In this document: positions 6,048 through 59,738 of the stretch, one piece after another | Position numbering within the stretch: the stretch's first letter is position 1 | How the letters are laid out: every line of letters starts with the position of its first letter | From: an uncultured Gammaproteobacteria bacterium | GTDB taxonomy: Bacteria > Pseudomonadota > Gammaproteobacteria > GCA-001735895 | Reading direction: 5' to 3' | NCBI GenBank assembly: GCA_947260025.1 | Contig: CAMYON010000001.1 | Location: 11,410 to 75,409, forward strand | Length of the DNA stretch: 64,000 nucleotides | Notes under the pieces: generated by a model | The model's input: the letters and a program-made list of their open reading frames with translations, nothing else | Databases searched by the model: none | What the model was told of the DNA's origin: nothing | Position numbers and translations under genes: made by a program

Positions 6048-6090
6048 TTATGCTCCCGGGTGGAGTTCGGACGAGCAGAATTGAGATTTG

Positions 6091-6813
6091 TTACTTGAGG
6101 TAGAATTCCATCTTTACGCCAGCGACTTCGATGATGTCGTGGCTTTTGAGTTCGTGTGCGTTTGATCCGATTGGTGAGCCGCCAACTTTAGGCACGCTAT
6201 TATTTGGGCCACCATCGACGTGAATCAGAAAAAATCCCTGAGGCCGGCGGGTAATAGCCGCTACCTGCACCCCGGGTTGACCAATCGTGGTCAGTGCCTT
6301 GGTCAGTACCAGTTCCTTACCGGCGTTGGCGCCGCTGAGTAATTGCAGGCAGGCTTCCCTGTTCGCCATCGGTGAAGCGGCGGTCGTGGCTGCCTCGGAA
6401 GCGATAGCGGCAGAAATTTTCTGTACCGACTTGTCAATCTCCTTGCCACCAGCTTCTTCGGGCATTCCAGCTTCGCCCGGGCGTATGATCATGGTTTGCT
6501 CGAAATCCTGCTCACCGCCGCCGGAATTGTTTTGGTAGGTAATCTGATACTTGCCAAGCGTAATATTGTCGCCGTTTTCCAGGGCATGCTTTTTGACCAG
6601 TTTGCCGTTAACGTAGGTGCCATTGGTGCTGCCCAGGTCTTCCAGGAATGAATCTTCAAGAATGGTAATGACCTGCGCATGTCTGCCACTGACAGACAAA
6701 TTATCGATTTGTATGTCATTGCCTGGTTTGCGCCCAATCGTAGTTGTTTCGTTGACCAACTCGTACTCGGTTTTTTCGCCCGTGCTTGATGTAGTGATCA
6801 GTTTTGCGACCAT
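6091..6813 (-). CDS. FHA domain protein (N-terminal canonical FHA, C-terminal degenerate FHA-like domain)
   Basis: The N-terminus has TTIGRKPGNDIQIDNLSVSGRHAQV...GSTNGTYVNGKLV, which carries the G-R, S-x-x-H and N-G FHA motifs. A low-complexity Gly/Ala/Glu linker follows. The C-terminus has a second beta-rich FHA-like domain (TTIGQPG...IEVAGVKMEF) that lacks the SxxH/NG motifs. Confidence 0.75.
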   Translation of the reverse strand: MVAKLITTSSTGEKTEYELVNETTTIGRKPGNDIQIDNLSVSGRHAQVITILEDSFLEDLGSTNGTYVNGKLVKKHALENGDNITLGKYQITYQNNSGGGEQDFEQTMIIRPGEAGMPEEAGGKEIDKSVQKISAAIASEAATTAASPMANREACLQLLSGANAGKELVLTKALTTIGQPGVQVAAITRRPQGFFLIHVDGGPNNSVPKVGGSPIGSNAHELKSHDIIEVAGVKMEFYLK

Positions 6814-6857
6814 GTTATTATCCAGCCTCTAGAGTAGTTTCTACTGGGTGTATTCCG

Positions 6858-7682
6858 TTAATCGAACCAAGCGGCAAACTTTTTAAACCAGCCCTGCTTG
6901 GTCGAAAAATCTTCGTCAATTCGGCACAGCATTACCGAAATATTGTCCTTTCCGCCATTCTGGTTTGCCTTTGTAATCAATTGCTTGGCAGCTTCTTCTA
7001 GATTAGCACTAAATTCCTTAATAGTGTAGTCTATATCTTCATCTTCAACCAGATCGGTTAGTCCGTCTGAACATAGCAGATATATATCATTTTTCAGGAC
7101 TATATCTTCCTGAATGTCTGGCATGACGATTGGATCGATGCCCAGGGCACGCGTAACGAGGTTTTTATTCATCGAGTTACGGGCCTCTTCGGGCGTATAG
7201 AATCCGCGATCAATGAGCTCCTGCAGCAGCGAGTGATCCTTGGTAATTTGCTCAAACTTGTCGTTACGCAGTCGATAGCAGCGTGAATCGCCTATGTGGG
7301 CGAGTGAAAAGGAATTGTTGTAAAACTGCAGCACCACGATGGTCGTCCCCATACCCTTGTGTTCTGCGTTATCTTCGGCTGTCTTGTAGACAAGTTCGTT
7401 AGCGGCGACAACGGCGTCCTGAATGCAAATCGACTCCAGCGAGAAGCCGCTGGCATCGTCTATCTCTCCGGGAGTGATTTCGGGCAGACGCTGTTGCAGC
7501 AGCTCGATGATGGTGTCGACGGTCATGCTGCTGGCTATTTCGCCGCCGCGATGTCCGCCCATGCCATCCGCTAGCACCACGAGACCCAGCGCGCTGTCGT
7601 AACCTATCGCGTCCTCGTTCTTGCTACGAACCATGCCGGTATCGGTCAAGCCTTTTATCGTTATCTTGTTTTGCAAGTTCAT
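6858..7682 (-). CDS. PP2C-family Ser/Thr protein phosphatase
   Basis: 274 aa with GMVRSKNEDAIGYD, LADGMGGHRGGEIAS and a DG..D metal-binding signature typical of bacterial PP2C (Stp1/PppA-like). Confidence 0.85.
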   Translation of the reverse strand: MNLQNKITIKGLTDTGMVRSKNEDAIGYDSALGLVVLADGMGGHRGGEIASSMTVDTIIELLQQRLPEITPGEIDDASGFSLESICIQDAVVAANELVYKTAEDNAEHKGMGTTIVVLQFYNNSFSLAHIGDSRCYRLRNDKFEQITKDHSLLQELIDRGFYTPEEARNSMNKNLVTRALGIDPIVMPDIQEDIVLKNDIYLLCSDGLTDLVEDEDIDYTIKEFSANLEEAAKQLITKANQNGGKDNISVMLCRIDEDFSTKQGWFKKFAAWFD

Positions 7683-7695
7683 ATGACTGCCAAGA

Positions 7696-10416
7696 CTAGC
7701 TCTTTAAAAACGCTTTTAGCGCATTCGCAAATTCAATTCCGGTTTGAAAGCGCTGCTCCACGTCCTTGATCAAAGACTTGTTGATAACCGCCGACAAGGG
7801 CTCCGGTACCTCGGGGCGAATCGTTCTGACATCCGCCGCTTCCTCGTTGGTAATTTTAAACATCAGGCTGGCCATTGAGTCGGCTTTGAACGGCAACGAG
7901 CCCGACAGCATCTGGTACAACATGACACCCAACGAGAACAGGTCGGAACGGCCGTCAACTTTTTTACCGGCCAACTGCTCTGGCGACATGTACGAGGGTG
8001 TGCCCAGTACCGTGCCGGTTTTGGTTTTACTTGAATCGGTGATGCGAGCGATGCCGAAATCGGTGATCTTGACGGTATCGGATTCCGGTTCATACATAAT
8101 GTTTGCCGGCTTGATGTCGCGGTGCACGACGTTTTGTCGATGCGCGTAATCGAGACCCTCGGCGGCACGTGCAACGATACTTAGTACCAGGCGCATTTTC
8201 AACAAGTTATCGGGTTTGCAATATCTCGCGAGATCGTGCCCCTGCAGGAATTCCATCGCAATGTAGGCCAGGTCGTGCTCTTCCCCGGCGTCATAAATGG
8301 TAACGATATTGGGATGATTGAGGCGGCCCGCGGTCTCGGCTTCACGGAAGAACCGCTGCTTGACCTCTTCCAGTTCGTCGGCATCGAATTCCTGGGCCAG
8401 CGCCAGGGTCTTGATCGCAACCACGCGGCTTATTTTTGGGTCCTTGCCGAGATAGACGATACCCATCGCACCCTTGCCGAGTTCTTTTTCAACTTCGTAG
8501 CGACCCAGCATCGGTTTCTCGACACCATCCTGGTCCAGCATCAGGGTGCCGCCGGCGTGAGCGCCGCTGCTACCCAGCATGACGGTATCTTCCAATTTCT
8601 GCGCCCGGTTCATTCTGTTTTCGACGTCACGGAAGCCTTTCTCGTGCTTGGTCATGTACTGGTACACCGAGGTGGCCTTGTTAAACTGGCGCTTGCGTTC
8701 GAAATCGAGCGCCAGGTTATACATGGCCTCCAGCACCTGCTCATCGACCGGGCTGCATTTGCGGAACTTTTCGAATGCCATGTCGAGCTGCCCCTGGGTT
8801 TGAAACGCTATACCCAGCATCCGATTACTCTCGGCTGATTCCTCGTCCGACCTTGCCTTGCCGCGCTCGGTCACCAGGAAGCGCTTGGTCGTGATCAGCA
8901 GGTACCCGATGACCAGCAGGGCTCCAGGCGTCATCACCTGGACCCACATGGTGTTGCTGGTCATCAACAAGTAGTGCGTGACCACCAGCGCCAACACCAG
9001 CATCAGTGAGACGACAAACGCGACTCCAGCCTTGAGACGCGGCATCAACAGCATCAGGTAAAAGGCAACCAGCAGAAAAACGCCCAGGCGAGCCCAGAAA
9101 CCCCACTCCGGTTCGATAAAGAAATCCTCGTTGAGTATGCTCGAAACCGAGTGCGCCAGCGTCAGTACCGGTGCCATCGAAGGATTGATAGGCGTTACCT
9201 GGGGAGTACCGACACCGGTTGCCGTGGGCCCGATCAAGACGATTTTATCCTTGTATTTCTCGATAGGAATCTTGCCGGTAAATACGTCGTAGTAAGAATC
9301 TACCGAGAAGGCGGGAAACCCCTGGTTATCAGAGTAGAAAAAGGTATTCATTTGTAGCTGCGAGTCGGTCTTGATGGCCAACGATCCCAGTTCCACGCTC
9401 TCGCCAAGATTTATCCGTATATCGTTAACGTCGAGGTTAAGACTTCTGGCTGCAATCTGCAGCGATATGGAAGGATAGTAGCGATCGTAATGCAGCATTA
9501 CCAGAGGTTCAGAGCGGACGCCGCCATCAGGATCCGGCAGCTTGTTCAAATGGCCAATTGCCGAGGCAAACTGACCGACGTCGTCGATTGGCGGTAACGC
9601 GGCAACGGTGGAGACGGGGTACAACCCGTTAGCCTGTGCAGATACTCGGTCGCGCACCTGGTTGATTGAATTATTGAGCACGAAACCGGGCAGCTCTGCA
9701 TCCGGATTGCCGCGTGGAATACCCGGGTAAAACAGCATTGCCAGCACAACGTTGCTGGCATTTTCGATACTGGCCGCTAGCTTGGCATCGGTGTTGAGCG
9801 CCTGCTCGGCCTCGAACAGGCTCGATTTCAGGGTTTCGATGTCCTGACTGAGGCGTGTATTCATACTGGATTGCAGGTAAAACTCGAGAATTTCGGTGAC
9901 CGCCTGGTTGTTACCTTCGAACTCCAGCATTGCTCCTAACGCGTCGACATCTGCGGCTATATCGCCAAAACTGGCATTGGAGAAAAACTCGATTAGTTCG
10001 CGGATGTACAGTGCTCCAGGATCTATTTGCGGTTCCAGAAAAAATACGGTCTGACCAATGACCTTGGCACCACCCTCGGACAGGCGGTTGATCAGTTCGG
10101 CATGCAGATCTCGCGGCCAGGGCCAGCGGCCAATATTATCGATACTTGCATCGTCGATAGCGATTACGGCAATTTTTTCGGTAGGTTGACGGTCGGTAGA
10201 TCGGACACCCCAGTCGTAGAAGCTGCGTTCGAGACTCTGGAACGGGGCTGCTCCCGAAAACAGGACCACCACGATGGTAATCATCAGCCCAGCGAACCAG
10301 TCGCTACTCCAAAAACGGGTTCTCATACCGTCTCCATAGTTCAAATTATTATTAGCCGTCCTGCTGTTTATCGTGGTTTCTTGCAGGACTTGCGACTGGA
10401 TAAAACCAGATTCCAA
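7696..10416 (-). CDS. CHASE2 sensor domain-containing Ser/Thr protein kinase
   Basis: 906 aa. It has an N-terminal TM segment and a periplasmic CHASE2-like domain (IAVIAIDDASIDNIGRWPWPRD), then a TM segment and a helical/TPR-like region. The C-terminal Hanks kinase domain carries GKGAMGIVYLGKD...AIK...HRDIKPANIM...DFG. The true start may be the internal Met (MRTRFWSSDWFAG) about 30 codons downstream. Confidence 0.85.
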   Translation of the reverse strand: MESGFIQSQVLQETTINSRTANNNLNYGDGMRTRFWSSDWFAGLMITIVVVLFSGAAPFQSLERSFYDWGVRSTDRQPTEKIAVIAIDDASIDNIGRWPWPRDLHAELINRLSEGGAKVIGQTVFFLEPQIDPGALYIRELIEFFSNASFGDIAADVDALGAMLEFEGNNQAVTEILEFYLQSSMNTRLSQDIETLKSSLFEAEQALNTDAKLAASIENASNVVLAMLFYPGIPRGNPDAELPGFVLNNSINQVRDRVSAQANGLYPVSTVAALPPIDDVGQFASAIGHLNKLPDPDGGVRSEPLVMLHYDRYYPSISLQIAARSLNLDVNDIRINLGESVELGSLAIKTDSQLQMNTFFYSDNQGFPAFSVDSYYDVFTGKIPIEKYKDKIVLIGPTATGVGTPQVTPINPSMAPVLTLAHSVSSILNEDFFIEPEWGFWARLGVFLLVAFYLMLLMPRLKAGVAFVVSLMLVLALVVTHYLLMTSNTMWVQVMTPGALLVIGYLLITTKRFLVTERGKARSDEESAESNRMLGIAFQTQGQLDMAFEKFRKCSPVDEQVLEAMYNLALDFERKRQFNKATSVYQYMTKHEKGFRDVENRMNRAQKLEDTVMLGSSGAHAGGTLMLDQDGVEKPMLGRYEVEKELGKGAMGIVYLGKDPKISRVVAIKTLALAQEFDADELEEVKQRFFREAETAGRLNHPNIVTIYDAGEEHDLAYIAMEFLQGHDLARYCKPDNLLKMRLVLSIVARAAEGLDYAHRQNVVHRDIKPANIMYEPESDTVKITDFGIARITDSSKTKTGTVLGTPSYMSPEQLAGKKVDGRSDLFSLGVMLYQMLSGSLPFKADSMASLMFKITNEEAADVRTIRPEVPEPLSAVINKSLIKDVEQRFQTGIEFANALKAFLKS

Positions 10417-10662
10417 ATCGTATATTATTCAATAGTTTATACGATCACCATGAACTGGTTAACAGCTAGAAGTCTACGCGCCCACCAATTAAATCGCGAT
10501 GGCCTTAGACTATAAGGTTGTATGCCCTTTTTTACCAGAGCTAAGCCCTAAAAAGTTGATTAAGATTTCCAATTTGAAATGCTCGTTAATTGACCTGGAC
10601 TTGATTCGATCTGCGTCTGATTATCCCGTTTCCCCTTTGCAGGTCGGGTATCGACAAATGTC

Positions 10663-10828
10663 AGAATTGCTCCGGAGAATCGAACGGCTTGAGGATCAGC
10701 ACATCGATCCGGATATATTTGAAGTCTTCATCCGTGAAAGGGTTTGCCTGGACTATGCGGAAGCGTTTCTGGATCCAGAACAGATAGATGAGATCGATGA
10801 AAGCCTGATACCAGGTTATGCAGGCTAG
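10663..10828 (+). CDS. Hypothetical small acidic protein (MSELLRRIERLEDQHIDPDIFEVF...); alternative longer ORF from 10499
   Basis: It lies in the AT-rich gap between the STK and cNMP-rhodanese genes, on the opposite strand. I recognise no family. The start is ambiguous, the Shine-Dalgarno is weak, and the coding potential is uncertain. Confidence 0.2.
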
Positions 10829-10852
10829 TCGCCAAATGATGCCTGCAGAGAA

Positions 10853-11908
10853 TCAGGCGGTTTCGAGATCGGAAGGCTCGGCAGTATCGACTCCGTCCCT
10901 TAATACGTAAGTTTCGATATCTTTTTCGTTTAGCAGAAATGAGGCGGCCGAGCTGCGGCGACCGGTGTCACAGTAAATGACGTATTTCTTGTCGGTATCG
11001 AGTGAATTTGCTTTCATGCGTAAAAAAATCAACGGAATGTTGATACTGCCCTTGATGTGTTTGGCCTTGTGCTCGGTCGGCAAGCGCACATCGAACCAGA
11101 CCGCACCTTCCGCCACCAGCTTCTTGCCTTCATCGTACTCGACCCAGTTAAGTAGCGGTTCGTTGAGCAGAGAGTTGAAATCCTCCTTGTTCAGTCGCAT
11201 CAGGTGGCCATCGGTAAGCATGGTAATGGTAGCGTTACGTTTGCTGTCGGAAATCAGGGCTTCCTCACCGAAGCTGTCTCCAACCGACAGGGTTGCAAGT
11301 TTGACACCGTTGGGATTGGCGGGTGTCGACCGGGTTACCAGGCAGCGACCTTCCTTGATGATGTAAAAGTAGTCACCCTCGGCATCCTGCTCGATGACTT
11401 TATCTCCGGGTTTATAGCTTACCGATTCCATGCGCATGAACATTGCCTGGATGTTGGCCGGTGGGATGCGATGAAAAGCCCGGGTTTGAAGGATTCGCGT
11501 CATCCAGTCGGTTTCGTCGTCATCTTCGTCGACTGCTTCAACCGAGTAACTGCCGGTTTGATCCCAGGTCAACATGATATCGAGCATGTCGCTATTGATC
11601 TTGGTGATTACGACAGCGGATTTGGCGCGTGCCGAAACCGGGCGCGGAAAGCCGTGAGCGATTGGCTGCAGCCCGTCTGGCGAGCCCGCCTTGATGACCT
11701 TTACCACTTTCTTGTCCTGCAGCAGTTCGATTTCACCCTGGAGCAGGTAAACATGAACCTTGTCCAGGTCACCTTTCTTGAAAATATAGTGGCCTGACTG
11801 TAACGGGGTAGCGGATATTTTTTTGATTAATTCTTGAGCGTTTTCAGGATTCAGAGAATTGATCGGGGAAAGTGATTTTATTTGATTGGGATCAATTTCA
11901 AGGCTCAT
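10853..11908 (-). CDS. Tandem cyclic-nucleotide-binding (CAP_ED) domain protein fused to a C-terminal rhodanese domain
   Basis: It has two cNMP-binding beta-barrel regions (..YIFKKGDLDKVHVYLLQGEIEL.. and ..GDYFYIIKEGRCLV...GDSFGEEALIS..). The C-terminal rhodanese domain has an intact active-site loop, YCDTGRRS (Cys-X4-Arg). Confidence 0.8.
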   Translation of the reverse strand: MSLEIDPNQIKSLSPINSLNPENAQELIKKISATPLQSGHYIFKKGDLDKVHVYLLQGEIELLQDKKVVKVIKAGSPDGLQPIAHGFPRPVSARAKSAVVITKINSDMLDIMLTWDQTGSYSVEAVDEDDDETDWMTRILQTRAFHRIPPANIQAMFMRMESVSYKPGDKVIEQDAEGDYFYIIKEGRCLVTRSTPANPNGVKLATLSVGDSFGEEALISDSKRNATITMLTDGHLMRLNKEDFNSLLNEPLLNWVEYDEGKKLVAEGAVWFDVRLPTEHKAKHIKGSINIPLIFLRMKANSLDTDKKYVIYCDTGRRSSAASFLLNEKDIETYVLRDGVDTAEPSDLETA

Positions 11909-22012: not shown

Positions 22013-22576
22013 ATGAAGCCCGACGACATGACGTTAATTGACGATGACAACCTGATCTGGATAGATCTCGAAATGACTGGCCTGGATCCGCAAACGGATG
22101 AGATCATCGAGATTGCGACCGTGGTCACCGACGCCAGGCTCAAGCTGTTGGCACAGGGTCCGGTTATCGCCATCCATCATCCGGCGTCGATCATGAATGC
22201 GATGGATGAGTGGAACACTAGTCATCATGGCAAATCGGGGCTTACCGAGAGAGTCAGGGAGAGCGATAGCAGCACCGAGGATGCCGAGCGCGAAACCCTT
22301 GATTTTCTGCGTCGCTACGTGCCCCCCGGTAAATCGCCGATGTGCGGTAACAGTATCTGCCAGGATCGTCGTTTCATGGCCCGGCTAATGCCCGAGCTGG
22401 AAGCATTTTTTCACTATCGAAATCTCGATGTGAGTACACTCAAGGAACTGGCGCGATTGTGGAAGCCCGAGCTGATCTCCGGATTTGCCAAGAAGGGTGC
22501 GCACCTGGCGCTGGACGATATTCTCGAGTCGATCGATGAAATGAAGTATTACCGCGAACACTTCATCCGCTGCTGA
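22013..22576 (+). CDS. orn: Oligoribonuclease
   Basis: [28 protein letters not shown] is a near-identical Orn N-terminal motif. It is a DEDDh exonuclease. Confidence 0.9.
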
Positions 22577-22758: not shown

Positions 22759-22787
22759 TTAAAGATTCCCGTTTTGCTGCCGATCTA
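22759..22787 (+). promoter_or_regulatory. Candidate sigma-28 (FliA) promoter upstream of motA
   Basis: TAAAGATT-N11-GCCGATCT compared with the FliA consensus TAAAGTTT-N11-GCCGATAA. It lies about 45 nt upstream of the motA ATG. Confidence 0.5.
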
Positions 22788-22828: not shown

Positions 22829-23602
22829 ATGGATCTTGCCTCGTTAATCGGCATCATTTCCGGTATTGGACTTATAGTTTCCGCGATTATTCTCGGCGGC
22901 GATGTGCACCATTTCATGAACGTGCCGGGAATCATGATTGTTCTGGGTGGCACCATGGCGGCAACCCTGTTGACGTTCCAGTTCAGGGACGTCTGGACCG
23001 CCTTCAAAAGCGCCTATTTCGTGTTTTCGTCGCCCAAACAGGATTCGCAGGAATTGATCAATACCATGATCAAGCTCGGCACTATCAGCCGTCGCAAGGG
23101 GTTGCTCAGTTTGATGGATGTTAAAACCAACTCGCCCTTCCTGAAACGCGTATGCACTTTGATCGCCGACGCGGCCGACGAGGAGACGCTGCGCAGTGCG
23201 ATGCGCACCGAAATCGAATCAATGCAAATGCGCCATTACATCGTGCAGGATGTGTTTCGCAAGATGGCGATGTACGCGCCGTCCTTCGGTATGCTCGGTA
23301 CGCTGATCGGTTTGATCCAGATGCTGTCGCTGCTGGCGAGTCCGGATAACCTCGGTCCGGCGATGGCGATTGCATTGCTGACCACTTTTTACGGCACCCT
23401 GTTATCGACCGCGATATTTCTGCCTATCGCCGGTAAACTGCGATCGCGGACCCTGGCCGAGGTAATGAACTTCGAAATAATCTTTCAGGGTGCGGTCAGT
23501 ATCCTGCAGGACAATAATCCACTCTCGGTATACGAGAAATTATCTTCCTTCGTGCCGGCCAGGCAGCGCAAGCCGATGCAGAAGCTAAGGGAGCGCAGCT
23601 AA
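22829..23602 (+). CDS. motA: Flagellar stator protein MotA (MotA/PomA family)
   Basis: 257 aa. It has four TM segments in the MotA/TolQ/ExbB arrangement and a cytoplasmic charged loop. It is followed by an OmpA-domain partner. The rsgA-orn-motAB neighbourhood matches Pseudomonas PA4951-PA4954. Confidence 0.8.
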   Translation: MDLASLIGIISGIGLIVSAIILGGDVHHFMNVPGIMIVLGGTMAATLLTFQFRDVWTAFKSAYFVFSSPKQDSQELINTMIKLGTISRRKGLLSLMDVKTNSPFLKRVCTLIADAADEETLRSAMRTEIESMQMRHYIVQDVFRKMAMYAPSFGMLGTLIGLIQMLSLLASPDNLGPAMAIALLTTFYGTLLSTAIFLPIAGKLRSRTLAEVMNFEIIFQGAVSILQDNNPLSVYEKLSSFVPARQRKPMQKLRERS

Positions 23603-24354
23603 TGTCGGCCAGCTCGCTAAGCAATATGTTCGAGGACGAAGAGGGCGGCAGCGCCTGGGTGGTAACCTTTGCCGATATGATGACCTTGATTCTGGTATTT
23701 TTCATTTTGCTTTACACGCTTGCAGATTTTGAAGACGAGGCCTACAAGGAGCTGATCGAGTCGGTGCAGGTGATCGACGGTGATGGCAGTCAGATCAGTG
23801 TTATCGATTTCGCCACACGCAAAGGCAGAAACCCGGAGCCGTTGCAGGCAGTCGAGGACATGCTGGGCATGAATCCCGGTACGGTTCCGATAGACACCGT
23901 AAAACCAGCCCTGGTCTCGGAAATGGAAAGCATGATCGATTATTCGGATATCGCCGATAGCGTAGAGCTGACCTATAACGGAGACCAGATCAATCTACAG
24001 ATCGACGGCCGCTATCTGTTTGCGTCGGGCCAGGCCGAGCTCAAGGACCGTGCCCGCTATATATTCGCCAATCTCGGACAAATGTTCCGCGATTATGCCG
24101 ACTATCGAATTGCGATTCGTGGGCATACCGACGATCAGAATATTCAGACCGCCCGCTATCCGTCCAACTGGGAGCTATCGGCAGTGCGCGCAACCACCGT
24201 GTTGCGATTTTTTATCGAGCAGGGCATCGATCCCGAGCGCATGACGGCCACCGGTTATGCGGATTATTTGCCGCTGGTCGAAAACAATAGTACCGATAAC
24301 AGGGCAAGAAATCGGAGAGTTGAATTTGTTCTGGAAAAACAAAAAGACAATTGA
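23602..24354 (+). CDS. motB: Flagellar stator protein MotB (OmpA-like peptidoglycan-binding C-terminus)
   Basis: It has a single N-terminal TM segment with the conserved Asp (FADMMTLILVFF), a plug region, and a C-terminal OmpA-like domain (RIAIRGHTDDQ...SNWELSAVRATTV). Its start overlaps the motA stop (ATGA). Confidence 0.8.
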   Translation: MSASSLSNMFEDEEGGSAWVVTFADMMTLILVFFILLYTLADFEDEAYKELIESVQVIDGDGSQISVIDFATRKGRNPEPLQAVEDMLGMNPGTVPIDTVKPALVSEMESMIDYSDIADSVELTYNGDQINLQIDGRYLFASGQAELKDRARYIFANLGQMFRDYADYRIAIRGHTDDQNIQTARYPSNWELSAVRATTVLRFFIEQGIDPERMTATGYADYLPLVENNSTDNRARNRRVEFVLEKQKDN

Positions 24355-24709
24355 GGTCGCTCTCGATTCGCGTCACAGCGATAATCGGGCGGCCTATCGA
24401 ATCGCGCCAGACAGCGATCGTCCCGTAATCATTTCGATCAAGGACGAGGACTTCAATGCGCTCAATATCAGCGGCACCGGCATCGCGTTTCGCGCAGACA
24501 GGTTCGAGGTCGGCAGCCGTTATGCGGCAAAAATTCGGTTACCCGGTGAAGGCAAGGTTTTCCGGGTGATTCTAGAAGTGGTGGCAAAACAGGAGGATCT
24601 CTGCAGATGTTGCTTTAGGGATATTCACGAAGAGGCTGAAAATCTACTACACTCTTATATCCTTGAGCTGCAAAAGTCGAAAATTAGGCAAAATCATGGT
24701 GAAGTTTGA
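24257..24709 (+). CDS. PilZ-domain protein (putative c-di-GMP receptor); start uncertain (only ATG at 24257, TTG candidates at ~24320/24326)
   Basis: PilZ motifs are present: NRAAYRI (RxxxR) and NISGTGIAF (D/NxSxxG). The ORF overlaps the 3' end of motB in another frame. Confidence 0.6.
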   Translation: MRIICRWSKTIVPITGQEIGELNLFWKNKKTIEVALDSRHSDNRAAYRIAPDSDRPVIISIKDEDFNALNISGTGIAFRADRFEVGSRYAAKIRLPGEGKVFRVILEVVAKQEDLCRCCFRDIHEEAENLLHSYILELQKSKIRQNHGEV

Positions 24710-32671: not shown

Positions 32672-33547
32672 CTATAAACCGAAAAGTGAATAGTAAAACT
32701 GCATCAGCTCATTACCCCACAGCAGGGTCATCCAGCCCGCCGCGGCGAGATAGGGGCCAAAAGGAATCTGGGTGCCGCGCTCGGTCATTTTCAGCAGGAT
32801 CATGCCGATACCGATGAAAGCGCCAACCAGGGAAGAGGTCAGGATAACCACGAACAGCGGCTTCCAGCCAAGCCATGCGCCAAGCATCGCAAGCAGCTTG
32901 AAATCGCCGTGCCCCATGCCTTCCTTGCCGGTTACCAGCTTGAACAGGATATACACGCTCCATAAGCTCATATAGCCTGCCATCGCGCCCATCACGCTGG
33001 ATTCGAGATCGACGAACACGTTGAACAGGGACAGCAGGATACCGAGCCACAGCAGGGGCAGGGTGATGCTGTCGGGTAACAGTTTATGTCCGATATCGAT
33101 ACCGCTGGCGGCGATCAGGCACCAGCTTAAAAACAGGGCTGCAAGCGCCTGCAGGCTGACGCCGAAATGCCAGCCAACGACCACCGAAACCAGCGCGGTG
33201 AACAGCTCCACCAGCGGGTACTGCAGCGATATACGGGTGTTGCAGCTGGAGCATTTGCCGCCCAAAACCAGGTAGCTAACAATCGGTATGTTTTCGAGTA
33301 CCGTGATTTGATGGCCGCACTGCCCGCAACGCGAGCGGGGGGTGCTGAGGTTGAACTTTTCGCTCCCGGCTTCGGCCGGTTGCTCGAGAAACTCGAGGCA
33401 GTCATGGCGCCATTCGCGCTGCATCATGACCGGCAGGCGGTAAATTACGACGTTCAGAAAACTGCCGACCGCGGCCCCGAAAACGAACAGGGTGGCGAGA
33501 TAGACAACCGGCTGCTGTTCGAACAGAGAGATAAAGGGATCGAACAA
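32672..33547 (-). CDS. pilD: Type IV prepilin leader peptidase / N-methyltransferase (A24 family)
   Basis: It has the tetracysteine motif CGQCGH...CSSC in cytoplasmic loop 1 and a multi-TM A24 peptidase architecture. Confidence 0.9.
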   Translation of the reverse strand: MFDPFISLFEQQPVVYLATLFVFGAAVGSFLNVVIYRLPVMMQREWRHDCLEFLEQPAEAGSEKFNLSTPRSRCGQCGHQITVLENIPIVSYLVLGGKCSSCNTRISLQYPLVELFTALVSVVVGWHFGVSLQALAALFLSWCLIAASGIDIGHKLLPDSITLPLLWLGILLSLFNVFVDLESSVMGAMAGYMSLWSVYILFKLVTGKEGMGHGDFKLLAMLGAWLGWKPLFVVILTSSLVGAFIGIGMILLKMTERGTQIPFGPYLAAAGWMTLLWGNELMQFYYSLFGL

Positions 33548-33558
33548 GCAGCTGTACC

Positions 33559-34782
33559 TTAGACCACGGCACCCAGTTTGAAGATCGGCAGGTACATCGC
33601 CACGATCAGGCCGCCGACGAGTACGCCGAGAACAGCCATGATGATCGGTTCCAGCAGCGAGGTTAAAGCGTCAACCGCGTTGTCGACCTCGGCCTCGTAA
33701 AAATCCGCGACCTTTGCCAGCATGGCATCGAGCGAACCGGCTTCCTCACCGATCGAAACCATCTGGATCGCCATATTGGGAAACAACCCGGTATTGCGCA
33801 TCGAGGTCTGTAGTTGCGTACCCTGGGAAACCTCGTCCCTGATCTTCAGGCTCGCGTTGTGATAAATGATGTTGCCGGTAGCACCGGCCACCGATTCCAT
33901 CGCCTCGACCAGCGGCACACCGGCCGCCGACATGGTTTCCAGCGTGCGCGCGAAGCGGGCGATCGCGGACTTGGTCGCGATTTCCCCGACCACCGGCGCT
34001 TTTAACGCCATCCGGTCCCAGGATTCCTGTAACTTCGGGGAAGTCTTCTTGATCCTGAAAAACACGTAGACCCCGCCGGCGATACCACCTGCAATCACCC
34101 ACCACCAGTCTTGCATGAACTCTGACAGATCGATGACGAACCGGGTCAGTGCCGGCAGATCGGCGCCGAACGAGTTGAACAGTTCCTCGAACTGGGGTAC
34201 GACGAATACCAGCAGAATAACGGTTACCACGAACGCGACGATCAAAACCGCTATCGGGTAAAACAGCGCCTTTTTCACCTTGGCCTTCAGGGCTTCGACT
34301 TTCTCCTTGTAGGTCGCCAGCTTGTCCAGCATGGTTTCGAGCGCACCCGATTGTTCGCCGGCGTTGACCAGGTTGATGAACAGCGGATCGAAGTAAAGTG
34401 GCTCCTTGGACAGTGCTTCCGCCAGCCCGACACCGCCCTCGACCTCGTTCTTGATGCCCATGATGAGTTTTTGCATCGACTGGTTGTCGCTACCCTGGGC
34501 GATGATTTCGAAGGATTGTACCAGCGGTACGCCCGCCGACATCATGGTTGCCATCTGGCGTGCAAATATCGAGATATCGGAGGGTGTAATTTTCTGGGCA
34601 CCACCAAACAGCGCTTTCGGCTTTTTCTTGACCTTGAGCGGGTTAATGCCCTGCTTGCGCAGTTCGTTCTTGGCCAGCGCATCGTTAAGCGCGAATATTT
34701 CTCCCTTAACCTTCGAGCCCCCACGATTGGTGCCTTCGTAGAGAAATTCTATTTTTTCAGCCGTTGCTGCTTTCGCTGCCAT
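33559..34782 (-). CDS. pilC: Type IV pilus inner-membrane platform protein PilC (GspF family)
   Basis: 407 aa with duplicated GspF domains and three TM segments. Confidence 0.9.
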   Translation of the reverse strand: MAAKAATAEKIEFLYEGTNRGGSKVKGEIFALNDALAKNELRKQGINPLKVKKKPKALFGGAQKITPSDISIFARQMATMMSAGVPLVQSFEIIAQGSDNQSMQKLIMGIKNEVEGGVGLAEALSKEPLYFDPLFINLVNAGEQSGALETMLDKLATYKEKVEALKAKVKKALFYPIAVLIVAFVVTVILLVFVVPQFEELFNSFGADLPALTRFVIDLSEFMQDWWWVIAGGIAGGVYVFFRIKKTSPKLQESWDRMALKAPVVGEIATKSAIARFARTLETMSAAGVPLVEAMESVAGATGNIIYHNASLKIRDEVSQGTQLQTSMRNTGLFPNMAIQMVSIGEEAGSLDAMLAKVADFYEAEVDNAVDALTSLLEPIIMAVLGVLVGGLIVAMYLPIFKLGAVV

Positions 34783-34785
34783 GGT

Positions 34786-36492
34786 TTAGTCCTTAGTTAC
34801 TCGGTTTGCTTCTTCGAGGCTGATCAGGCCCTGTTTGACTTTCTTCAATGCGGAGCGACGCAAATCGTCGACCCCTTCCTTGCGTGCCTGGTCGGCAATA
34901 TCGATCGAGTTGGCGCCACCCATGATCAGGCGGCCCATTTCCTCGGAAATACCCATTACCTGGTAGATACCGACCCGGCCCTTGTAGCCGCCGGTGCATT
35001 TGTCGCAACCCACGGCCTTGTAAATCTTGAAATCCTCGGCCAGGTCCTGCTTGGTGAAGCCTTCCTTGAGCAACACTTCCTTGGGTATATCGTCCGGTGT
35101 CTTGCAATCGCCGCACAGGCGTCGGCCCAGGCGCTGGGCAATAATCAGCGTTACCGAAGTGGCGATGTTGAATGCCGGCACGCCCATGTTCATCAGTCGG
35201 GTCAGGGTTTGCGGACCGTCGTTGGTGTGCAGGGTCGACATGACCAGGTGGCCGGTTTGCGCGGCCTTGATCGCGATACTCGCGGTTTCGAGATCACGTA
35301 TCTCACCTACCATGATGACGTCCGGGTCCTGCCGCAGAAAGGCCTTCAGGGCCTCGGCGAAGGTCAGCCCGACCTTGTCGTTGACGTTTACCTGGTTGAT
35401 TCCCTCGAGATTTATTTCAGCCGGGTCTTCCGCGGTCGAAATATTGGTTTCCGGCACGTTAAGAATGTTCAACCCGGTATACAGCGAGACGGTTTTACCG
35501 CTACCGGTCGGGCCGGTAACCAGGATCATGCCGTAGGGATTGGCCAGCGCTTTCATGTAAAGCTCTTTTTGTTCCGGCTCGTAACCCAATGCATCGATAC
35601 CGAGCTGGGCGCTGGACGGATCGAGGATACGCAGCACCACTTTCTCGCCGAACAATGTCGGGCAGGTGTTGACACGAAAGTCGATGGCTCGCTTCTTCGA
35701 TAACTTCAGCTTGATGCGGCCGTCCTGCGGCACGCGTCGCTCGGATATGTCCATGCGCGACATGACCTTGACGCGAGCGGTCAGTTTGGCGGCGATGTTG
35801 ATCGGTGGCGAGGCGACTTCCGACAGGATGCCGTCGATACGGTAGCGTACTCGATAGCGTTTTTCGTAGGGCTCGAAATGGATATCGGAGGCGCCCTTGT
35901 TGATCGCATCGAGCAGAATCTTGTTGACGTACTTAACGACCGGTGCATCGTCAGCCTCGTCCTTGGTCGGGCCGGAATCGTCGTCTTCCTCGGCGCCGAT
36001 ATCGAGGTTTTCGAGATCGTCGTCGAGCATTTCGTCCATTCCGGTATCCATGGCGCTGGCGGCTTTATCGATGAACTCTGCCAGCTGGGTATCCTGCACC
36101 AGGATCGCCTCGGTCGAGAGGCCGGTGGCAAACTTGATCTCATCCAGCGCCTGGGTATTGGTCGGGCTGGATATGGCGACGAACAGACGGTTGCCGCGCT
36201 TGAACAGCGGCACGGCGTTGAGCTTGGTTATCAACTTTTCTTCGATAATTCCGAATGCCGCCATCTCGGTATCCATGACGTCGAGATCGAATACCGGCAG
36301 GCCGAACTCCTGCGATGAAATCATCGCAATAACGGAAGCAGGAACGATTTTATTGTTAACCAGGTAGCTTGTGAGCTGAATGCCTTCCTTGTTGGCCTTC
36401 TCGACTGCCTCAAGCGCTGCCGCCTCGTCCAGATGGTTTTCCATGACCATCTTGCGGGCGATGCCGGTCAAATTTACGTTAGTTGCGGACAT
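34786..36492 (-). CDS. pilB: Type IV pilus assembly ATPase PilB (GspE family)
   Basis: It has Walker A GPTGSGKT, Asp/His boxes, and the tetracysteine motif CGDC...CDKC. Confidence 0.9.
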   Translation of the reverse strand: MSATNVNLTGIARKMVMENHLDEAAALEAVEKANKEGIQLTSYLVNNKIVPASVIAMISSQEFGLPVFDLDVMDTEMAAFGIIEEKLITKLNAVPLFKRGNRLFVAISSPTNTQALDEIKFATGLSTEAILVQDTQLAEFIDKAASAMDTGMDEMLDDDLENLDIGAEEDDDSGPTKDEADDAPVVKYVNKILLDAINKGASDIHFEPYEKRYRVRYRIDGILSEVASPPINIAAKLTARVKVMSRMDISERRVPQDGRIKLKLSKKRAIDFRVNTCPTLFGEKVVLRILDPSSAQLGIDALGYEPEQKELYMKALANPYGMILVTGPTGSGKTVSLYTGLNILNVPETNISTAEDPAEINLEGINQVNVNDKVGLTFAEALKAFLRQDPDVIMVGEIRDLETASIAIKAAQTGHLVMSTLHTNDGPQTLTRLMNMGVPAFNIATSVTLIIAQRLGRRLCGDCKTPDDIPKEVLLKEGFTKQDLAEDFKIYKAVGCDKCTGGYKGRVGIYQVMGISEEMGRLIMGGANSIDIADQARKEGVDDLRRSALKKVKQGLISLEEANRVTKD

Positions 36493-36912
36493 TAGGCACT
36501 CTTTGAATTAGCGAGATTCGGAATGTTTCACCAAACTTAAAGTATATTATAGTTTCACGATATTTTTGATAAATCTGTTCCCTAATTAAAGCACAATAAT
36601 GGCCAAAGTTTGGAAATTTTGTCTGAGAAGTATTTCGTATGAAATCAGACGCTTATTAGGCAAGATTAAATCAGTTTATCAATAGCTTTTTACCCCTGTA
36701 CCGGCCCTTGTCGAGGCCTGCGACACCGATGTCTGATTAGCGGGATTCAAAGTGATTACTTGGCCATATATCTTTTGATACCTGAGCAGGCGGTGCAAGG
36801 AGAATGGTGCCGACTTCTTTGAGTACCACCATGAGTGTCCTAGACTCGACACGCCGCTGACTGCGGCACCCCAAATACAGGGCTCAACAGAAACTAATCG
36901 GGGGGTTCAATA

Positions 36913-36952
36913 ATAAAAAAAAGGGGGTAAGACCTTTGGGTCTTACCCCCTC
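36913..36952 (-). terminator. Rho-independent terminator downstream of pilA
   Basis: The perfect hairpin GGGGGTAAGACC-TTTGG-GTCTTACCCCC is followed on the minus strand by a T8 run. It lies about 35 nt past the pilA stop. Confidence 0.65.
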
Positions 36953-36987
36953 GTTATCATTCAGAAATTCGAATGACGATGTAGATA

Positions 36988-37467
36988 TTAGATTCTACAT
37001 TCAGCCGGCAGGAACTGAACCGGGATAGTAGTACCTGCATCTGCGTTGGTGCAGCGCCAAACGACACTACCAGTCGCGTTAGCATCAGAGATAGCGAGGT
37101 TGTTAATAAACGGGGCGAACATCAGCTGGTTGGTCGCAGCCAGCTGTGGGATGTTACCCATAGTGATTGTGATTAATCCACTACCACCGGTAACACCGAC
37201 TGCAGAAATCTTGTCAGTTTGCAGTTCACCCGCCGCACTGGCAGCTGCTACTTCAAGGGCATAAGCGGCTACACCGGCCATACCACTGTTAGCGAACATT
37301 TCTGTAACGCCTACTTTGATGGCACTGGCAGCGATGGCGCCTTCTGAAACCTTGGCACGTACCGTGTAATCCTGGTAAGCAGGCAGCGCAACCGCGGCCA
37401 GAATACCGATGATTGCAACTACGATCATCAATTCGATCAATGTAAAACCAGCTTGTACTTTTTTCAT
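36988..37467 (-). CDS. pilA: Type IVa major pilin PilA
   Basis: [34 protein letters not shown] gives the class III signal peptide and the Gly-1/Phe+1/Glu+5 cleavage context. It has a C-terminal disulfide loop C...C and a strong SD (AGAGGA). Confidence 0.9.
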
Positions 37468-37540
37468 TTTGAGTTTCCTCTTTTCAAAAAATTAAATTCA
37501 ATTTTGAAATCGACTTATGCCGTTTCATGCTGTAACAGGA

Positions 37541-37556
37541 TGCAATCGTGATGCCA
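37541..37556 (-). promoter_or_regulatory. Sigma-54 (RpoN) -24/-12 promoter for pilA
   Basis: The minus strand reads TGGCAT-CACGA-TTGCA, a perfect match to the GG-N10-GC spacing of TGGCAC-N5-TTGCW. It lies about 75 nt upstream of the pilA ATG, and the NtrC-family activator PilR is encoded immediately upstream. Confidence 0.65.
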
Positions 37557-37641
37557 ACTCTGCTATTTTTTATAAAAGCTATTAAAAACAATAACTTGCG
37601 ATTATTGGATCTTGAGCAGTAAGGTGCCCGGGAGCAAATGT

Positions 37642-37657
37642 TTGACAAAATTGTCAA
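37642..37657 (-). promoter_or_regulatory. Palindromic candidate enhancer (PilR upstream activating sequence) for the pilA sigma-54 promoter
   Basis: TTGACAAAATTGTCAA is a perfect inverted repeat about 90-100 nt upstream of the -24 element. Additional TGTCA/TGACA half-sites lie nearby (atGTCAgat, GTGTaaa). Confidence 0.35.
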
Positions 37658-37701
37658 GTTTTTACACGGAATGTCAGATATTTACCGGGATTCTGCCCGG
37701 T

Positions 37702-39033
37702 TCAGTCGTTTTTCAGCTGCAGCTTGTCGATGCGATAGCGCAACTGGCGTAAAGTCAGTCCCAGCGCACGCGCGGTTGCGGATTGGTTCCAGCGGTTGTC
37801 CTCGAGTGCGCTGATTATTTGTGCTTTCTCCAGATTCTGCGTCATTTCCCCCAGGCTGGGCGTTTTGCCGTTGTTTTCCGTGGCAACCTCCGGTAGCTGC
37901 AGGTCATCGACCTCGATGGATTCGTTCTCGCACAGCGCCAATGCGCGCTCGAGAATGTTTTCCAGTTCACGCACGTTGCCTGGAAACGGGTAGGCGTTCA
38001 GCGCGGCCACGGCTGCGTCGTTGATGGTAATGTTGCTGCGGTTGAGGAAGTTATGCTTCTGAATCAGGTAGTCGGCGAGTTGTGCGATATCCTCGGTCCG
38101 CTCCGACAAGGTGGGTACGATGATACCGATGACGTTGACTCGGTAGTATAAATCCTGGCGAAAACTGCCGTCGGCCACCATCGTGTCGATATTCTTGTGC
38201 GAGGCGCTGATAATGCGGACGTCGATGGGCTCTTCCTGCTGCGCACCGACCGCGCGGATCGATTTTTCCTGGATCACGCGCAGCAGCTTGACCTGCATCG
38301 CCAGCGGCAAATCGGCGATCTCGTCGAGAAACAGCGTGCCGCCGTTGGCTGCCTTGAACAATCCCTCGTTGTCGCTGGTGGCACCGGTAAAGCTACCTTT
38401 CAGGTGCCCGAAAAATTCGCTTTCCATCAATTCAGAAGGTATCGCGCCGCAGTTAACGGCGATAAATGCCGCGCCGGAGCGCGAGCCCTGCAGGTGTATC
38501 TGCCGCGCCACCAGTTCCTTGCCGGTGCCCGAGGCGCCGCTAATAAACACCGGTGCCTGGCTACGGGCGAATTTTGCGATCGAGCGCTTGAGCTCCTCCA
38601 TCACGGCCGAATCGCCGATGATCTGGTACTTTGTATCCGCCGGATCGCCGGCAAGCTGGGGCGAGCTGGGCAGGGTCAGCGCCTTGTCGACGAGATTGCG
38701 CAGGGTTTCCAGCGACACCGGTTTGGAGACGAAGTCGAACGCACCGCATTTCATTGCCTTGATTGCAAGATCGATGCTGCCATGCGCGGTAATGACCGCG
38801 GTCGGCGTGTTCGGGCAGTGCTGTTGAATATATTCGACCAGCGCGATGCCATCGCCATCCGGCAATTTCATATCCGTCAGGCAAAGGTCGAAGGATTCGT
38901 CGTGCAGTATTCGTGTAGCGTTGCTGTAGTCTTCGGCGCTGCGCGTCTCGAGCCCCATGCGCAGCAGCGTAATTTCCAGTAATTCCCGGATATCGGGTTC
39001 GTCATCGACGATTAAAACGCGTTGCCTGGTCAT
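37702..39033 (-). CDS. pilR: Sigma-54-dependent two-component response regulator PilR (NtrC family)
   Basis: It has a REC domain ([14 protein letters not shown]...D54 context) and an AAA+ sigma-54 activator domain ([21 protein letters not shown]). The C-terminal Fis-type HTH is [20 protein letters not shown]. Confidence 0.9.
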
Positions 39034-40655
39034 TGATCCATCCCAGCTTCCGCTCCCATCGCGAGCGAGGTCATCTGCAGTATGAAACTGGTGCCGTTAA
39101 ACCGGTTTGTCCTGGCGGTGATAAACGCATTATTGAGTTCGCATAGTTGCCCGCAGATGTACAGTCCGAGACCGGATCCCTCGTGACTGGTGGTGTAAAA
39201 AGGTTCGAAAATCTGGTCCAGGATTTCGGCGTCGACGCCGGGTCCCCGGTCGGCAACCTCGATACAAAGGGGATAAGCCTCGGTGGCGAAGACCCTAATC
39301 GTAATCGGGTCATCGTTGTCACCGTGAACCACCGCGTTGGTGCACAGGTTGGTCAGAATTTGCGCCAGGTGGCCGGCGTCGAACAGCAGTACCGGATGCC
39401 CCACTTCCATTTCGAGTTCGAATGATTCAGGTCGAGCCAGTCCGGATTGACAGAAATCATCGATAAAGCCGGGCAGCCAGGTTTCGAGGTCGATTTGCTC
39501 CTTGGCGGTCGGGCTGCTGCGCGAGATCTTCAGGATATCTTCGATGATGTTATTGATGCGCAACGTGTGCAGGTTGATGATTTCGATCATGCGCTCGTCC
39601 GTCTCGGCAAGTTCCTCGTTCTCGTTGAGCAACTCGGCCGCGTAAGAGATCGCTCCCAGCGGGTTCCTGATTTCATGCGCGATACTCGCGGTCAGGTGAC
39701 CTAAGGAGGCCAGCTTGGCTTGTTGCATGCTATCGCGAATCGACGATACGTCGTTGAGAAATACCATCGTATTGGGCTGGCCCTCGCTTTGCAGTTCGCG
39801 AAAGCTGATCTGAATATTGGCCATCCCCGCCTCGGGTGGCAGCGAGCCCGACGCATCTCCTGAATTGTTACGCCAGGCCTCCAGTGCGGCCAGCACGCCG
39901 GGACAATCCTTTTCCAGTGAAATCGATTTGATGTTTGCCAGATGCAACATGTCCAGTGCGGCCTGGTTGATGTGTCGGATCCGGTCGTTACGGCTGAGCA
40001 CGATAACCCCTGCCTGCAGGTTCTCGATAATTTCCTGGTTCAGTGCCGACAATAATGCAACATCGCGTTCGCGTTGCTGAATCAACTGCTCGCTGCTGCG
40101 AATCCGCGTCATCAGGTTATGCGTCACGATTGCCGTGGCGATTAGACTCGCGCCAAGAATACCCACCTGGGTCGAGGTCCCGGTATAGCCGGGCAGGTTG
40201 ATTACCGAGTAGATGTGTTCGGCCAGCAATCCGAGCGACGCCAGCGAGGCAAACAGTATAGCGAGCGCCTGCTCGGTCAGCAGACTCGACACCGCCACCG
40301 AGATGATCAGCAGCATGCCAAGACCGCTGGAAATACCGCCGCAGGCATGCATCAGCAGGATAATCATGATGGTATCGCTATAGATTTGCAGCGTAACCTG
40401 GTTCTGAAAACCACGCCTCTCGATCCAGGCCGCTACGATCCAGATCATGGCCAGCAGCAGGAAGGCGAAGCTGGTCCAGGAATACAGTGAGAGATAGACG
40501 ATGTTCAGCAGAGGGGAGGGGCTGACAAAGCTTTGCGCAAAAAATATAGCCGCCAACCCGAGGCGATAGACGTTCAGCAGCCGAACCGAGGTCCAGTTGG
40601 TCGAACGTGGCCGGTAACCGCGCGCGAGCGGATTACTGCTGATCAAGCTCTGCAT
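39030..40655 (-). CDS. pilS: Sensor histidine kinase PilS (six-TM N-terminus)
   Basis: It has a hydrophobic 6-TM N-terminal region, the HisKA H-box SIAHEIRNPLGAI, and a HATPase_c domain with N/G1/G2 boxes. Its stop overlaps the pilR start. Confidence 0.85.
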   Translation of the reverse strand: MQSLISSNPLARGYRPRSTNWTSVRLLNVYRLGLAAIFFAQSFVSPSPLLNIVYLSLYSWTSFAFLLLAMIWIVAAWIERRGFQNQVTLQIYSDTIMIILLMHACGGISSGLGMLLIISVAVSSLLTEQALAILFASLASLGLLAEHIYSVINLPGYTGTSTQVGILGASLIATAIVTHNLMTRIRSSEQLIQQRERDVALLSALNQEIIENLQAGVIVLSRNDRIRHINQAALDMLHLANIKSISLEKDCPGVLAALEAWRNNSGDASGSLPPEAGMANIQISFRELQSEGQPNTMVFLNDVSSIRDSMQQAKLASLGHLTASIAHEIRNPLGAISYAAELLNENEELAETDERMIEIINLHTLRINNIIEDILKISRSSPTAKEQIDLETWLPGFIDDFCQSGLARPESFELEMEVGHPVLLFDAGHLAQILTNLCTNAVVHGDNDDPITIRVFATEAYPLCIEVADRGPGVDAEILDQIFEPFYTTSHEGSGLGLYICGQLCELNNAFITARTNRFNGTSFILQMTSLAMGAEAGMDQ

Positions 40656-59681: not shown

Positions 59682-59738
59682 TTCTCAAGATTTACCTGAA
59701 TACGCCGATAAACAGTCAAGTTTATCGAACATTCACGG

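Follow-up and report, generated by a model that had tools for sequence, protein, structure and literature searches.

What does a short reading frame that opens inside a flagellar stator gene encode, and could its product slow the motor in response to c-di-GMP (cyclic diguanosine monophosphate)? The question is raised by a locus on contig CAMYON010000001.1 from an uncultured Gammaproteobacteria bacterium, of which a stretch of 64,000 nucleotides (nt), hereafter the window, was analyzed. In this locus the stator genes motA and motB are followed by pilZ, a gene for a stand-alone PilZ-domain protein, which an earlier interpretation made from the letters of the DNA (the sequence-only reading) had taken for a candidate flagellar brake. 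The pilZ reading frame proves to be a genuine gene with its start codon inside motB, and motA, motB and pilZ form a stator module that is shared by Gammaproteobacteria and Desulfobacterales. With a probability that we put at about 0.58, the PilZ protein would be a c-di-GMP-triggered brake or clutch directed at MotA and encoded in a stator operon with a FliA-type promoter.

A pilZ gene with a TTG start inside motB

The list of open reading frames (ORFs) contains an alternative-frame ORF of 150 amino acids at 24257..24709 (+), located right after motA and motB. The sequence-only reading had placed it correctly, with an ATG 98 nt and TTG codons about 30 nt inside motB; these candidate starts are ATG 24257 (98 nt inside), TTG 24320 (35 nt inside) and TTG 24326 (29 nt inside). 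A search of 5.8 billion proteins returned 120 PilZ homologues, nearly all of which are called at 127 amino acids and begin with M/L-F-W-K-K-K-K. At the DNA level, the window was compared with 27 fetched genomic loci (L001-L027; n=28 close loci with the window) from metagenome-assembled genomes (MAGs) of uncultured Gammaproteobacteria, including the Olavius algarvensis Gamma 3 endosymbiont. The codon aligned to TTG 24326 is TTG in 28/28 loci, GGAG stands 8 nt upstream of it in 28/28, and the motB stop follows 20-29 nt past the TTG. In five loci (L008, L017, L020, L023 and L025), an in-frame TAG lies exactly at the position of TTG 24320, and therefore neither this codon nor ATG 24257 is the conserved start; both were ruled out, and TTG 24326 is the only universal candidate. 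The true start is TTG 24326, which gives a protein of 127 amino acids and a 29-nt overlap with motB. The proposed start inside motB thus stands, while the proposed size of 130-150 amino acids does not.

The pilZ gene so defined occupies 24326..24709 (+), in the +1 frame relative to motB. Its Shine-Dalgarno sequence, GGAG (24314..24317, +), is embedded in the codons of an Arg-Arg pair of motB, and the dual-coding overlap (24326..24354, +) is read as ...FVLEKQKDN* in motB and as MFWKNKKTI in PilZ. A codon-by-codon count across the 28 loci is the strongest single piece of evidence for this start. The motB codons TTT GTT CTG GAA AAA, counted from the TTG on (0 to +4), have zero synonymous variation in 28/28 loci. 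The Arg-Arg pair that holds GGAG is limited to [CA]GG AG[AG], where other conserved Arg residues of motB use 5-6 codons, and each of the other conserved residues in the upstream part of motB is written with 4-6 synonymous codons. These frozen codons therefore reflect selection on how PilZ begins (its Shine-Dalgarno sequence, start codon and N-terminus), added to the selection on MotB itself. The same pattern extends beyond the close relatives: the block GGAG.GT.GA.TTTGTTCTGGAAAAA is kept across 23 aligned loci of both Gammaproteobacteria and Desulfobacterales, GGAG being found in the Desulfobacterales loci as well, and residues F2 and W3 of PilZ are invariant even in members at only 30% identity. 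For the non-overlapping part of pilZ, the ratio of nonsynonymous to synonymous substitution rates (dN/dS) is 0.04-0.20 against eight relatives. The pilZ ORF is under purifying selection and is a real gene, far beyond what chance would produce.

Given such data, the ORF can hardly be taken for a chance overlap or for a wrongly called gene, nor is it credible that it is made only as a MotB-PilZ fusion through frameshifting in an A-run. Such an explanation could draw on the position of the ORF, in an alternative frame over a conserved gene, and on the A-rich runs (GGAAAAACAAAAAG) at the motB/pilZ junction. However, the dN/dS values and the 380 cluster representatives that match the family profile (described below) speak for a protein-coding gene, and the Shine-Dalgarno sequence and TTG are invariant. 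The C-terminal domain of MotB is periplasmic, a compartment without c-di-GMP. A fusion is implausible because it would place PilZ in the periplasm when the protein needs cytoplasmic c-di-GMP, and it was rejected on this ground together with the conserved Shine-Dalgarno sequence and start that pilZ has of its own. The conservation data effectively refute both the chance-overlap and the fusion explanation.

The overlap guarantees that motB and pilZ are co-transcribed. The sequence-only reading had gone further and taken it to imply translational coupling, a step that is not established: pilZ is served by a conserved Shine-Dalgarno sequence and a conserved start of its own, and neither is masked by a conserved RNA structure. 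No RNA hairpin over the PilZ start, the device through which coupling classically works, was found in the window (fold z = -1.5), and the consensus RNA structure at the junction, computed from aligned loci of Gammaproteobacteria and Desulfobacterales, amounts to -1.1 kcal/mol with no covariation. Coupling to motB is possible, and independent initiation is equally possible.

A predicted PilZ barrel with invariant ligand motifs

PilZ (PF07238) is the sole Pfam domain of the 127-residue protein, matched with E=1e-9 and 39 bits against a cut-off of 22.5 over profile positions 2-101 of 102, and the protein has no YcgR-N (PilZN) domain. No NCBIfam family matches it, and a PDB sequence search with it gave no match, even at E<=10. 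Both c-di-GMP motifs are intact: RxxxR is present as R21-A-A-Y-R25 (24386..24400, +) and [D/N]xSxxG as N47-I-S-G-T-G52 (24464..24481, +), with R21, R25, N47, S49, G50 and G52 invariant in 115 homologues. R21 and R25 are also invariant in a 27-sequence alignment of distant members, and further invariant residues of the 115-member alignment are D19, C93, F97, I100, L108, H109, I112 and L113. The evidence for a ligand consists of these invariant binding-site motifs, which suggest that the protein binds c-di-GMP.

The AlphaFold model, with a mean predicted local distance difference test score (pLDDT) of 82, has disordered residues 1-18, a six-stranded beta-barrel at residues 25-100 and a helix at residues 102-125. 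When compared with the PDB by Foldseek, its top matches are all PilZ domains (MapZ-CheR1, Alg44, YcgR, MotI, BcsA and others) at 14-23% identity, with a probability of 1.00 to the PilZ domains of MapZ, Alg44, YcgR (5y6f) and MotI (5vx6), and the best structural matches are c-di-GMP-bound PilZ domains. The protein is accordingly modeled as a canonical stand-alone PilZ barrel with invariant ligand motifs. The Pfam match, the invariance among 115 homologues, the AlphaFold model and the Foldseek matches together bear out the earlier assignment of a single-domain PilZ protein with intact RxxxR and D/NxSxxG motifs.

After the motifs, the best-conserved segment of PilZ is the predicted C-terminal helix (residues 102-125; 24629..24700, +; pLDDT ~90), with the sequence EAENLLHSYILELQKxKIRQN. 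Residues A104, E105, N106, L107, Y111, L115, Q116, K117, K119, I120 and R121 of this helix are at least 90% conserved in the 115 homologues, and its H, L and Q are still kept in distant members.

A C93-R-C95 ... H101 ... H109 pattern (24602..24652, residues 93-109) is also kept in the close family and suggests a possible metal site or redox-sensitive pair. As a Cys-x-Cys...His...His metal site it was rejected, the second Cys and H101 not being kept in distant members, where only C93 and H109 persist. Two of the MAG loci have irregular reading frames that are likely due to assembly error or decay in the MAG concerned: in L017 the PilZ frame has just 98 codons, and in L023 motA and motB are each broken into two frames.

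The stator genes and their promoter

The gene motA (22829..23602, +; 257 amino acids; Pfam MotA_ExbB E=8e-24) encodes a PomA/MotC-like stator subunit A, and motB (23602..24354, +; 250 amino acids; Pfam MotB_plug E=5.5e-14, OmpA E=3.8e-16) encodes stator subunit B, its start sharing one base with the motA stop in a TAATG junction. Together they have the features of a flagellar MotA5B2 stator, namely a MotA_ExbB channel protein and a MotB with a plug, a transmembrane Asp and an OmpA-like domain. As read from the sequence, D25 in TFADMMT of MotB occupies the place of the conserved channel Asp. MotA can be aligned with PomA of Vibrio alginolyticus (8bri; E=2e-47, 36% identity) over a gapless stretch and keeps from it R88, P151, T158, T185, T186 and P199, with K89 changed to R, E96 to M and E97 to D. 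The closest solved structures to MotA are all flagellar stators. In NCBIfam, MotA scores highest with PomA/MotP and MotB with MotD/MotS, PomA and MotD being the single best matches, and every one of these scores is under the curated cut-off.

Promoters of the sigma-28 (FliA) type have the consensus TAAAGTTT-N11-GCCGATAA. A promoter of this type that matches the consensus closely, TAAAGATT-N11-GCCGATCT (22760..22786, +), lies ~45 nt upstream of the motA ATG and is the sole exact match to the pattern TAAAG-N14-GCCGAT in the 64-kb window. Among the 26 related loci whose sequence covers this region, 25 have a relaxed sigma-28 motif at the equivalent site 5' of motA, and the intergenic DNA that flanks it is divergent. 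The window also encodes a T-ring-type stator-associated protein, MotY (59739..60602, +; 287 amino acids; Pfam MotY_N E=2.4e-26, OmpA E=1.4e-13), and a pattern match places a near-perfect sigma-28-type box, TCAAGATT-N11-GCCGATAA (59685..59711, +), before its gene. The stator features, the promoter upstream of motA and a motY gene with the same type of box therefore indicate that the organism has a flagellum and that the operon belongs to its late flagellar regulon. In the clade of the window, motA-motB-pilZ is on this sequence evidence most plausibly a flagellar stator operon, and the membership of pilZ in such an operon, which the sequence-only reading had assumed, gains support from the promoter upstream of motA and from motY. 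As supporting evidence, motY suggests a polar-type flagellum; judged from the window, the PomA/MotC-like stator and the nearby motY point to a polar-type motor. The motY gene is situated 35 kb from the stator operon and adjoins pyruvate dehydrogenase genes.

Spread of the module over two phyla

The gene order rsgA, M48 peptidase, orn, motA, motB, pilZ, lpxC, M23 peptidase, secA is found in 27/27 MAG loci, across which identity to the window is 87-99% for MotA, 66-97% for MotB and 47-94% for PilZ. When 1.84 billion cluster representatives were searched with a profile, the family grew to 380 relatives at E<=1e-3, with 190 at E<=1e-10 and only 8 at E<=1e-30; the cluster members are named only as 'hypothetical protein'. 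The distant relatives (~30% identity) are stand-alone PilZ proteins of 120-145 amino acids that keep the MFWKKK start and the C.C.F...H.Y.L..QK..IR end, and their named carriers are Desulfobacterales, including the cultured Desulfobacula toluolica. In the seven distant contexts that were looked up, motA-motB-pilZ is present in 7/7, the PilZ start lying 14-32 nt inside motB with the same junction, aGGAGggtNgaatTTGttctggaaaaa. The MotA of the window is 57-65% identical to the MotAs of the Desulfobacterales modules, as against 36% to Vibrio PomA. The genes that flank the module are otherwise unrelated between the two phyla: most Desulfobacterales loci have the operon among ABC-transporter and DinB-like genes, and one distant locus (L031) has cheY, cheA, cheW, cheD and cheB just downstream. 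With an overlapping pilZ start behind motB in 28/28 close and 7/7 distant loci, MotA, MotB and PilZ therefore travel as one unit. By these comparisons, motA-motB-pilZ is a distinct stator module common to two phyla.

Several features of the gammaproteobacterial loci stand apart from the question of the module. Across the MAG clade, the identity of MotA exceeds that of SecA (76-97%) and is comparable to that of LpxC (91-100%), an unusually strong constraint for a stator protein. The gene orn (22013..22576, +) encodes oligoribonuclease, the enzyme that clears pGpG, and is directly upstream of motA in 24/24 related loci that reach far enough; orn and rsgA presumably neighbor motAB in Pseudomonas aeruginosa too. 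Two loci with other labels, L024 (Acidimicrobiia) and L026 (Urechidicola, Bacteroidota), carry the gammaproteobacterial order rsgA-orn-motAB-pilZ-lpxC-secA and are probably mis-binned contigs.

No sigma-28 box is evident in the Desulfobacterales loci, save for a weak match in L028. A common sigma-70-like promoter, TTGACC-N17-TATAAT(AGCATGGG), is found upstream of motA in L028, L029 and L032-L034, and the module may be under different regulation in that phylum. These loci could be read to mean that the MotAB pair is the motor of another, non-flagellar envelope process, which PilZ would make responsive to c-di-GMP. The setting of most Desulfobacterales operons among transporter and DinB-like genes behind a sigma-70-like promoter is in keeping with this explanation, as are the scores of MotA and MotB under the NCBIfam cut-offs of every named flagellar stator family and the E96/E97 acidic pair of PomA, which is not conserved in the module. 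It is nevertheless very unlikely: the clade of the window keeps the sigma-28-type promoter upstream of motA, motY has the same box, and the plug, channel Asp and OmpA domain of MotB go together with solved structures that are, for the closest matches, all flagellar stators.

A proposed c-di-GMP-triggered brake on the stator

The question of function then becomes what a PilZ protein does that is inherited with a flagellar stator. The nearest precedent is MotL (Sputcn32_3446) of Shewanella putrefaciens CN-32, a stand-alone PilZ protein of 144 amino acids with intact RxxxR and DxSxxG motifs, encoded 34 bp downstream of the lateral motB and responsible for c-di-GMP-dependent control of lateral-motor output (PMC8203827). 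The notion that a stand-alone PilZ protein encoded behind motAB could steer motor output thus had a precedent when it was put forward for the window. In the interpretation that we favor, motA-motB-pilZ would be transcribed as a three-gene operon from the FliA (sigma-28)-type promoter, and PilZ would be translated from the TTG, which falls within the codons that specify the final beta-strand of the peptidoglycan-binding domain of MotB. When c-di-GMP is high, the nucleotide would be clamped between the NxSGxG strand and the N-terminal RxxxR loop, which is flexible, and the liganded protein would dock on the cytoplasmic face of its cognate MotA via the RxxxR region and the conserved C-terminal helix. 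Docking would lower torque generation or stator engagement, so that PilZ would serve this type of stator as its own brake or clutch. A MotA-directed brake or clutch is favored on the strength of the YcgR and MotL precedents and because the RxxxR region and the C-terminal helix are the best-conserved parts of the family, which in essence amounts to these two elements carried by a barrel. That c-di-GMP is bound, that MotA is the target and that the effect is inhibitory are proposed from the analogy to MotL and to YcgR's PilZ domain.

A number of observations weigh against a MotA-directed brake. A direct interaction between MotAB and MotL could not be demonstrated (PMC8203827), chemotaxis proteins are the targets of other stand-alone PilZ proteins, with MapZ acting on CheR1 and FilZ on a CheW homologue (PMC10304486), and the PilZ-fold protein FlgX can be a positive structural partner of the stator (PMC11725899). 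The Desulfobacterales loci have the sigma-70-like promoter in place of the sigma-28 box. In PomA, R88, K89, E96 and E97 are charged loop residues on the side of FliG. Across the MotAs of the module, R88 and R89 are invariant, and the acidic pair at PomA E96/E97 is not kept, these positions being non-acidic in Desulfobacterales; the rotor interface of the module MotA may be atypical, since R88/R89 are retained but the E96/E97 pair is missing. Finally, both GGDEF-domain proteins in the window have degenerate active sites. One is a membrane protein with HGAEF (43946..45106, +) and the other a REC-GGDEF response regulator with NLNTF (50370..51299, -). No active diguanylate cyclase was seen in the window, and c-di-GMP synthesis is not evident from it because both GGDEF proteins are degenerate. 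The two are possibly receptors or inactive.

The examples of MapZ and FilZ raise the alternative that PilZ is a c-di-GMP adaptor for a target other than the stator, such as a chemotaxis protein or the C-ring, and is merely co-expressed with late flagellar genes. The best Foldseek match of the model is indeed MapZ complexed with CheR1 (5xly_B), FilZ is a stand-alone PilZ protein from a flagellar cluster that binds its CheW homologue (PMC10304486), and the co-localization of MotL pointed to the C-ring or motor and not to a proven MotAB contact (PMC8203827); the chemotaxis genes just downstream of the module in L031 would fit as well. We consider an adaptor of this kind unlikely, however, for identity to MapZ is only 16%, so that the match reflects the general PilZ fold, and the linkage is specific to motB in two phyla with otherwise unrelated flanking genes.

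FlgX, in turn, is the model for an alternative in which the stator has in PilZ a positive or structural partner that it needs for assembly, stability or recruitment, with c-di-GMP modulating or even promoting stator function. Obligate co-inheritance with motAB in 35/35 contexts and a start hard-wired in motB would suit a dedicated subunit, as would the extreme conservation of MotA (87-99%). FlgX itself sits under MotA pentamers and is required for motility (PMC11725899), and deletion data for MotL hint that it may also speed lateral flagella when c-di-GMP is low (PMC8203827). Such a role is fairly unlikely all the same. FlgX lacks c-di-GMP motifs and has two extra tetramer-forming helices (PMC11725899), whereas the motifs are invariant here and one C-terminal helix is predicted; the TTG start suggests that less PilZ is made than MotB, as would be more usual for a regulator; and PilZ evolves much faster than MotA (47-94% versus 87-99% identity).

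A further interpretation, which we offer tentatively and hold to be doubtful, goes beyond a c-di-GMP-triggered brake. The module might be an ancient stator class of two phyla that has a c-di-GMP receptor as a dedicated subunit. The ribosome-binding site, the TTG and the codons for the invariant N-terminal Phe-Trp-Lys-Lys would be written into the codons for the last beta-strand of MotB, PilZ would be made at the membrane beside every stator as it forms, and c-di-GMP would gate the stator as such, with no diffusible brake.

The slowing of flagella by c-di-GMP is understood mainly for two-domain proteins of the YcgR type, and their target is still debated. The minimal PilZ protein consists of nothing but the part of YcgR that has been reported to bind MotA, and in two phyla its gene is tied to a single stator subfamily. 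Should the protein bind MotA, the structure of a PilZ-stator interface could be resolved in an uncluttered system, which would also test whether contact with the stator alone suffices to brake the motor. The junction, for its part, is a clear and long-lived case of dual coding, with conserved codons that encode the fold of one protein fixing where the next gene starts. The module is carried by sulfate reducers and by Gammaproteobacteria that are abundant in sediments and as symbionts, among them the Olavius Gamma 3 symbiont, for whose flagella a literature search found nothing.

Other genes in the window

Type IV pilus genes are found at 32672..40655 (-) and comprise pilD, pilC, pilB (whose N-terminal domain is of the MshEN type), a pilin gene, pilR and pilS, so that the organism has pili in addition to a flagellum. 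A compact signaling cluster at 3816..11908 (-) encodes a CHASE2-adenylate/guanylate cyclase, an FHA protein, a PP2C phosphatase, a CHASE2-Ser/Thr kinase and a protein with cyclic nucleotide monophosphate (cNMP)-binding and rhodanese domains.

Comparison with known systems

The system closest in layout is that of MotL, which likewise consists of one PilZ domain and whose gene follows motA-motB immediately on the same strand. Compared by description, the two differ in that the MotL gene does not overlap motB and serves a proton-driven lateral (secondary) system, whereas pilZ of the window starts inside motB and accompanies a PomA/MotC-like stator and MotY. No Shewanella-named protein is among the matches of the PilZ family.

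With YcgR, FlgZ, MotI and PlzD, the PilZ protein of the window shares the PilZ fold (Foldseek 5y6f and 5vx6), and the same elements are conserved in it. Those proteins consist of two domains, YcgR-N and PilZ, where the window protein has 18 disordered residues before RxxxR, and identity to them is 17-23%. Because the window protein is without a YcgR-N domain, a contact with FliG like that of YcgR-N is not possible in the same way. Genes of the YcgR type are also not generally linked to motAB, unlike pilZ of the window.

FlgX of Campylobacter jejuni is a tetrameric PilZ protein that differs from the window protein in forming tetramers, in having two extra helices and no c-di-GMP motifs, and in being required for motility. 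More generally, tetrameric PilZ proteins (FlgX and XCC6012) have two extra long helices and often lack the motifs, while the protein of the window has one predicted C-terminal helix and intact motifs. MapZ (PA4608) and FilZ are of the same size as the window protein and share its arrangement, in which a loop at the N-terminus precedes the barrel and a helix forms the C-terminus, and both influence flagellar behavior. They differ in their targets, CheR1 and a CheW homologue (PMC10304486), in genes that are not coupled to motB and, for MapZ, in an identity of 16%.

The stator itself is most similar to the PomAB/MotCD/MotPS clade with MotY, as indicated by the gapless alignment of MotA with PomA, by a MotB with plug, channel Asp and OmpA domain and by the presence of motY. 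It departs from this clade in its 36% identity to PomA, in NCBIfam scores that fall below the cut-offs, in not keeping the E96/E97 pair and in the overlapping PilZ gene, which is always present. In the literature, nothing was found on a PilZ gene that overlaps motB or is linked to pomAB. A stand-alone PilZ protein encoded behind motAB is already known as a kind of system. What is new is its tie to a PomA/MotC-like stator subfamily and its spread over Gammaproteobacteria and Desulfobacterales, together with a conserved dual-coding junction that fixes the TTG start and the FWKK N-terminus of PilZ inside the last conserved strand of MotB.

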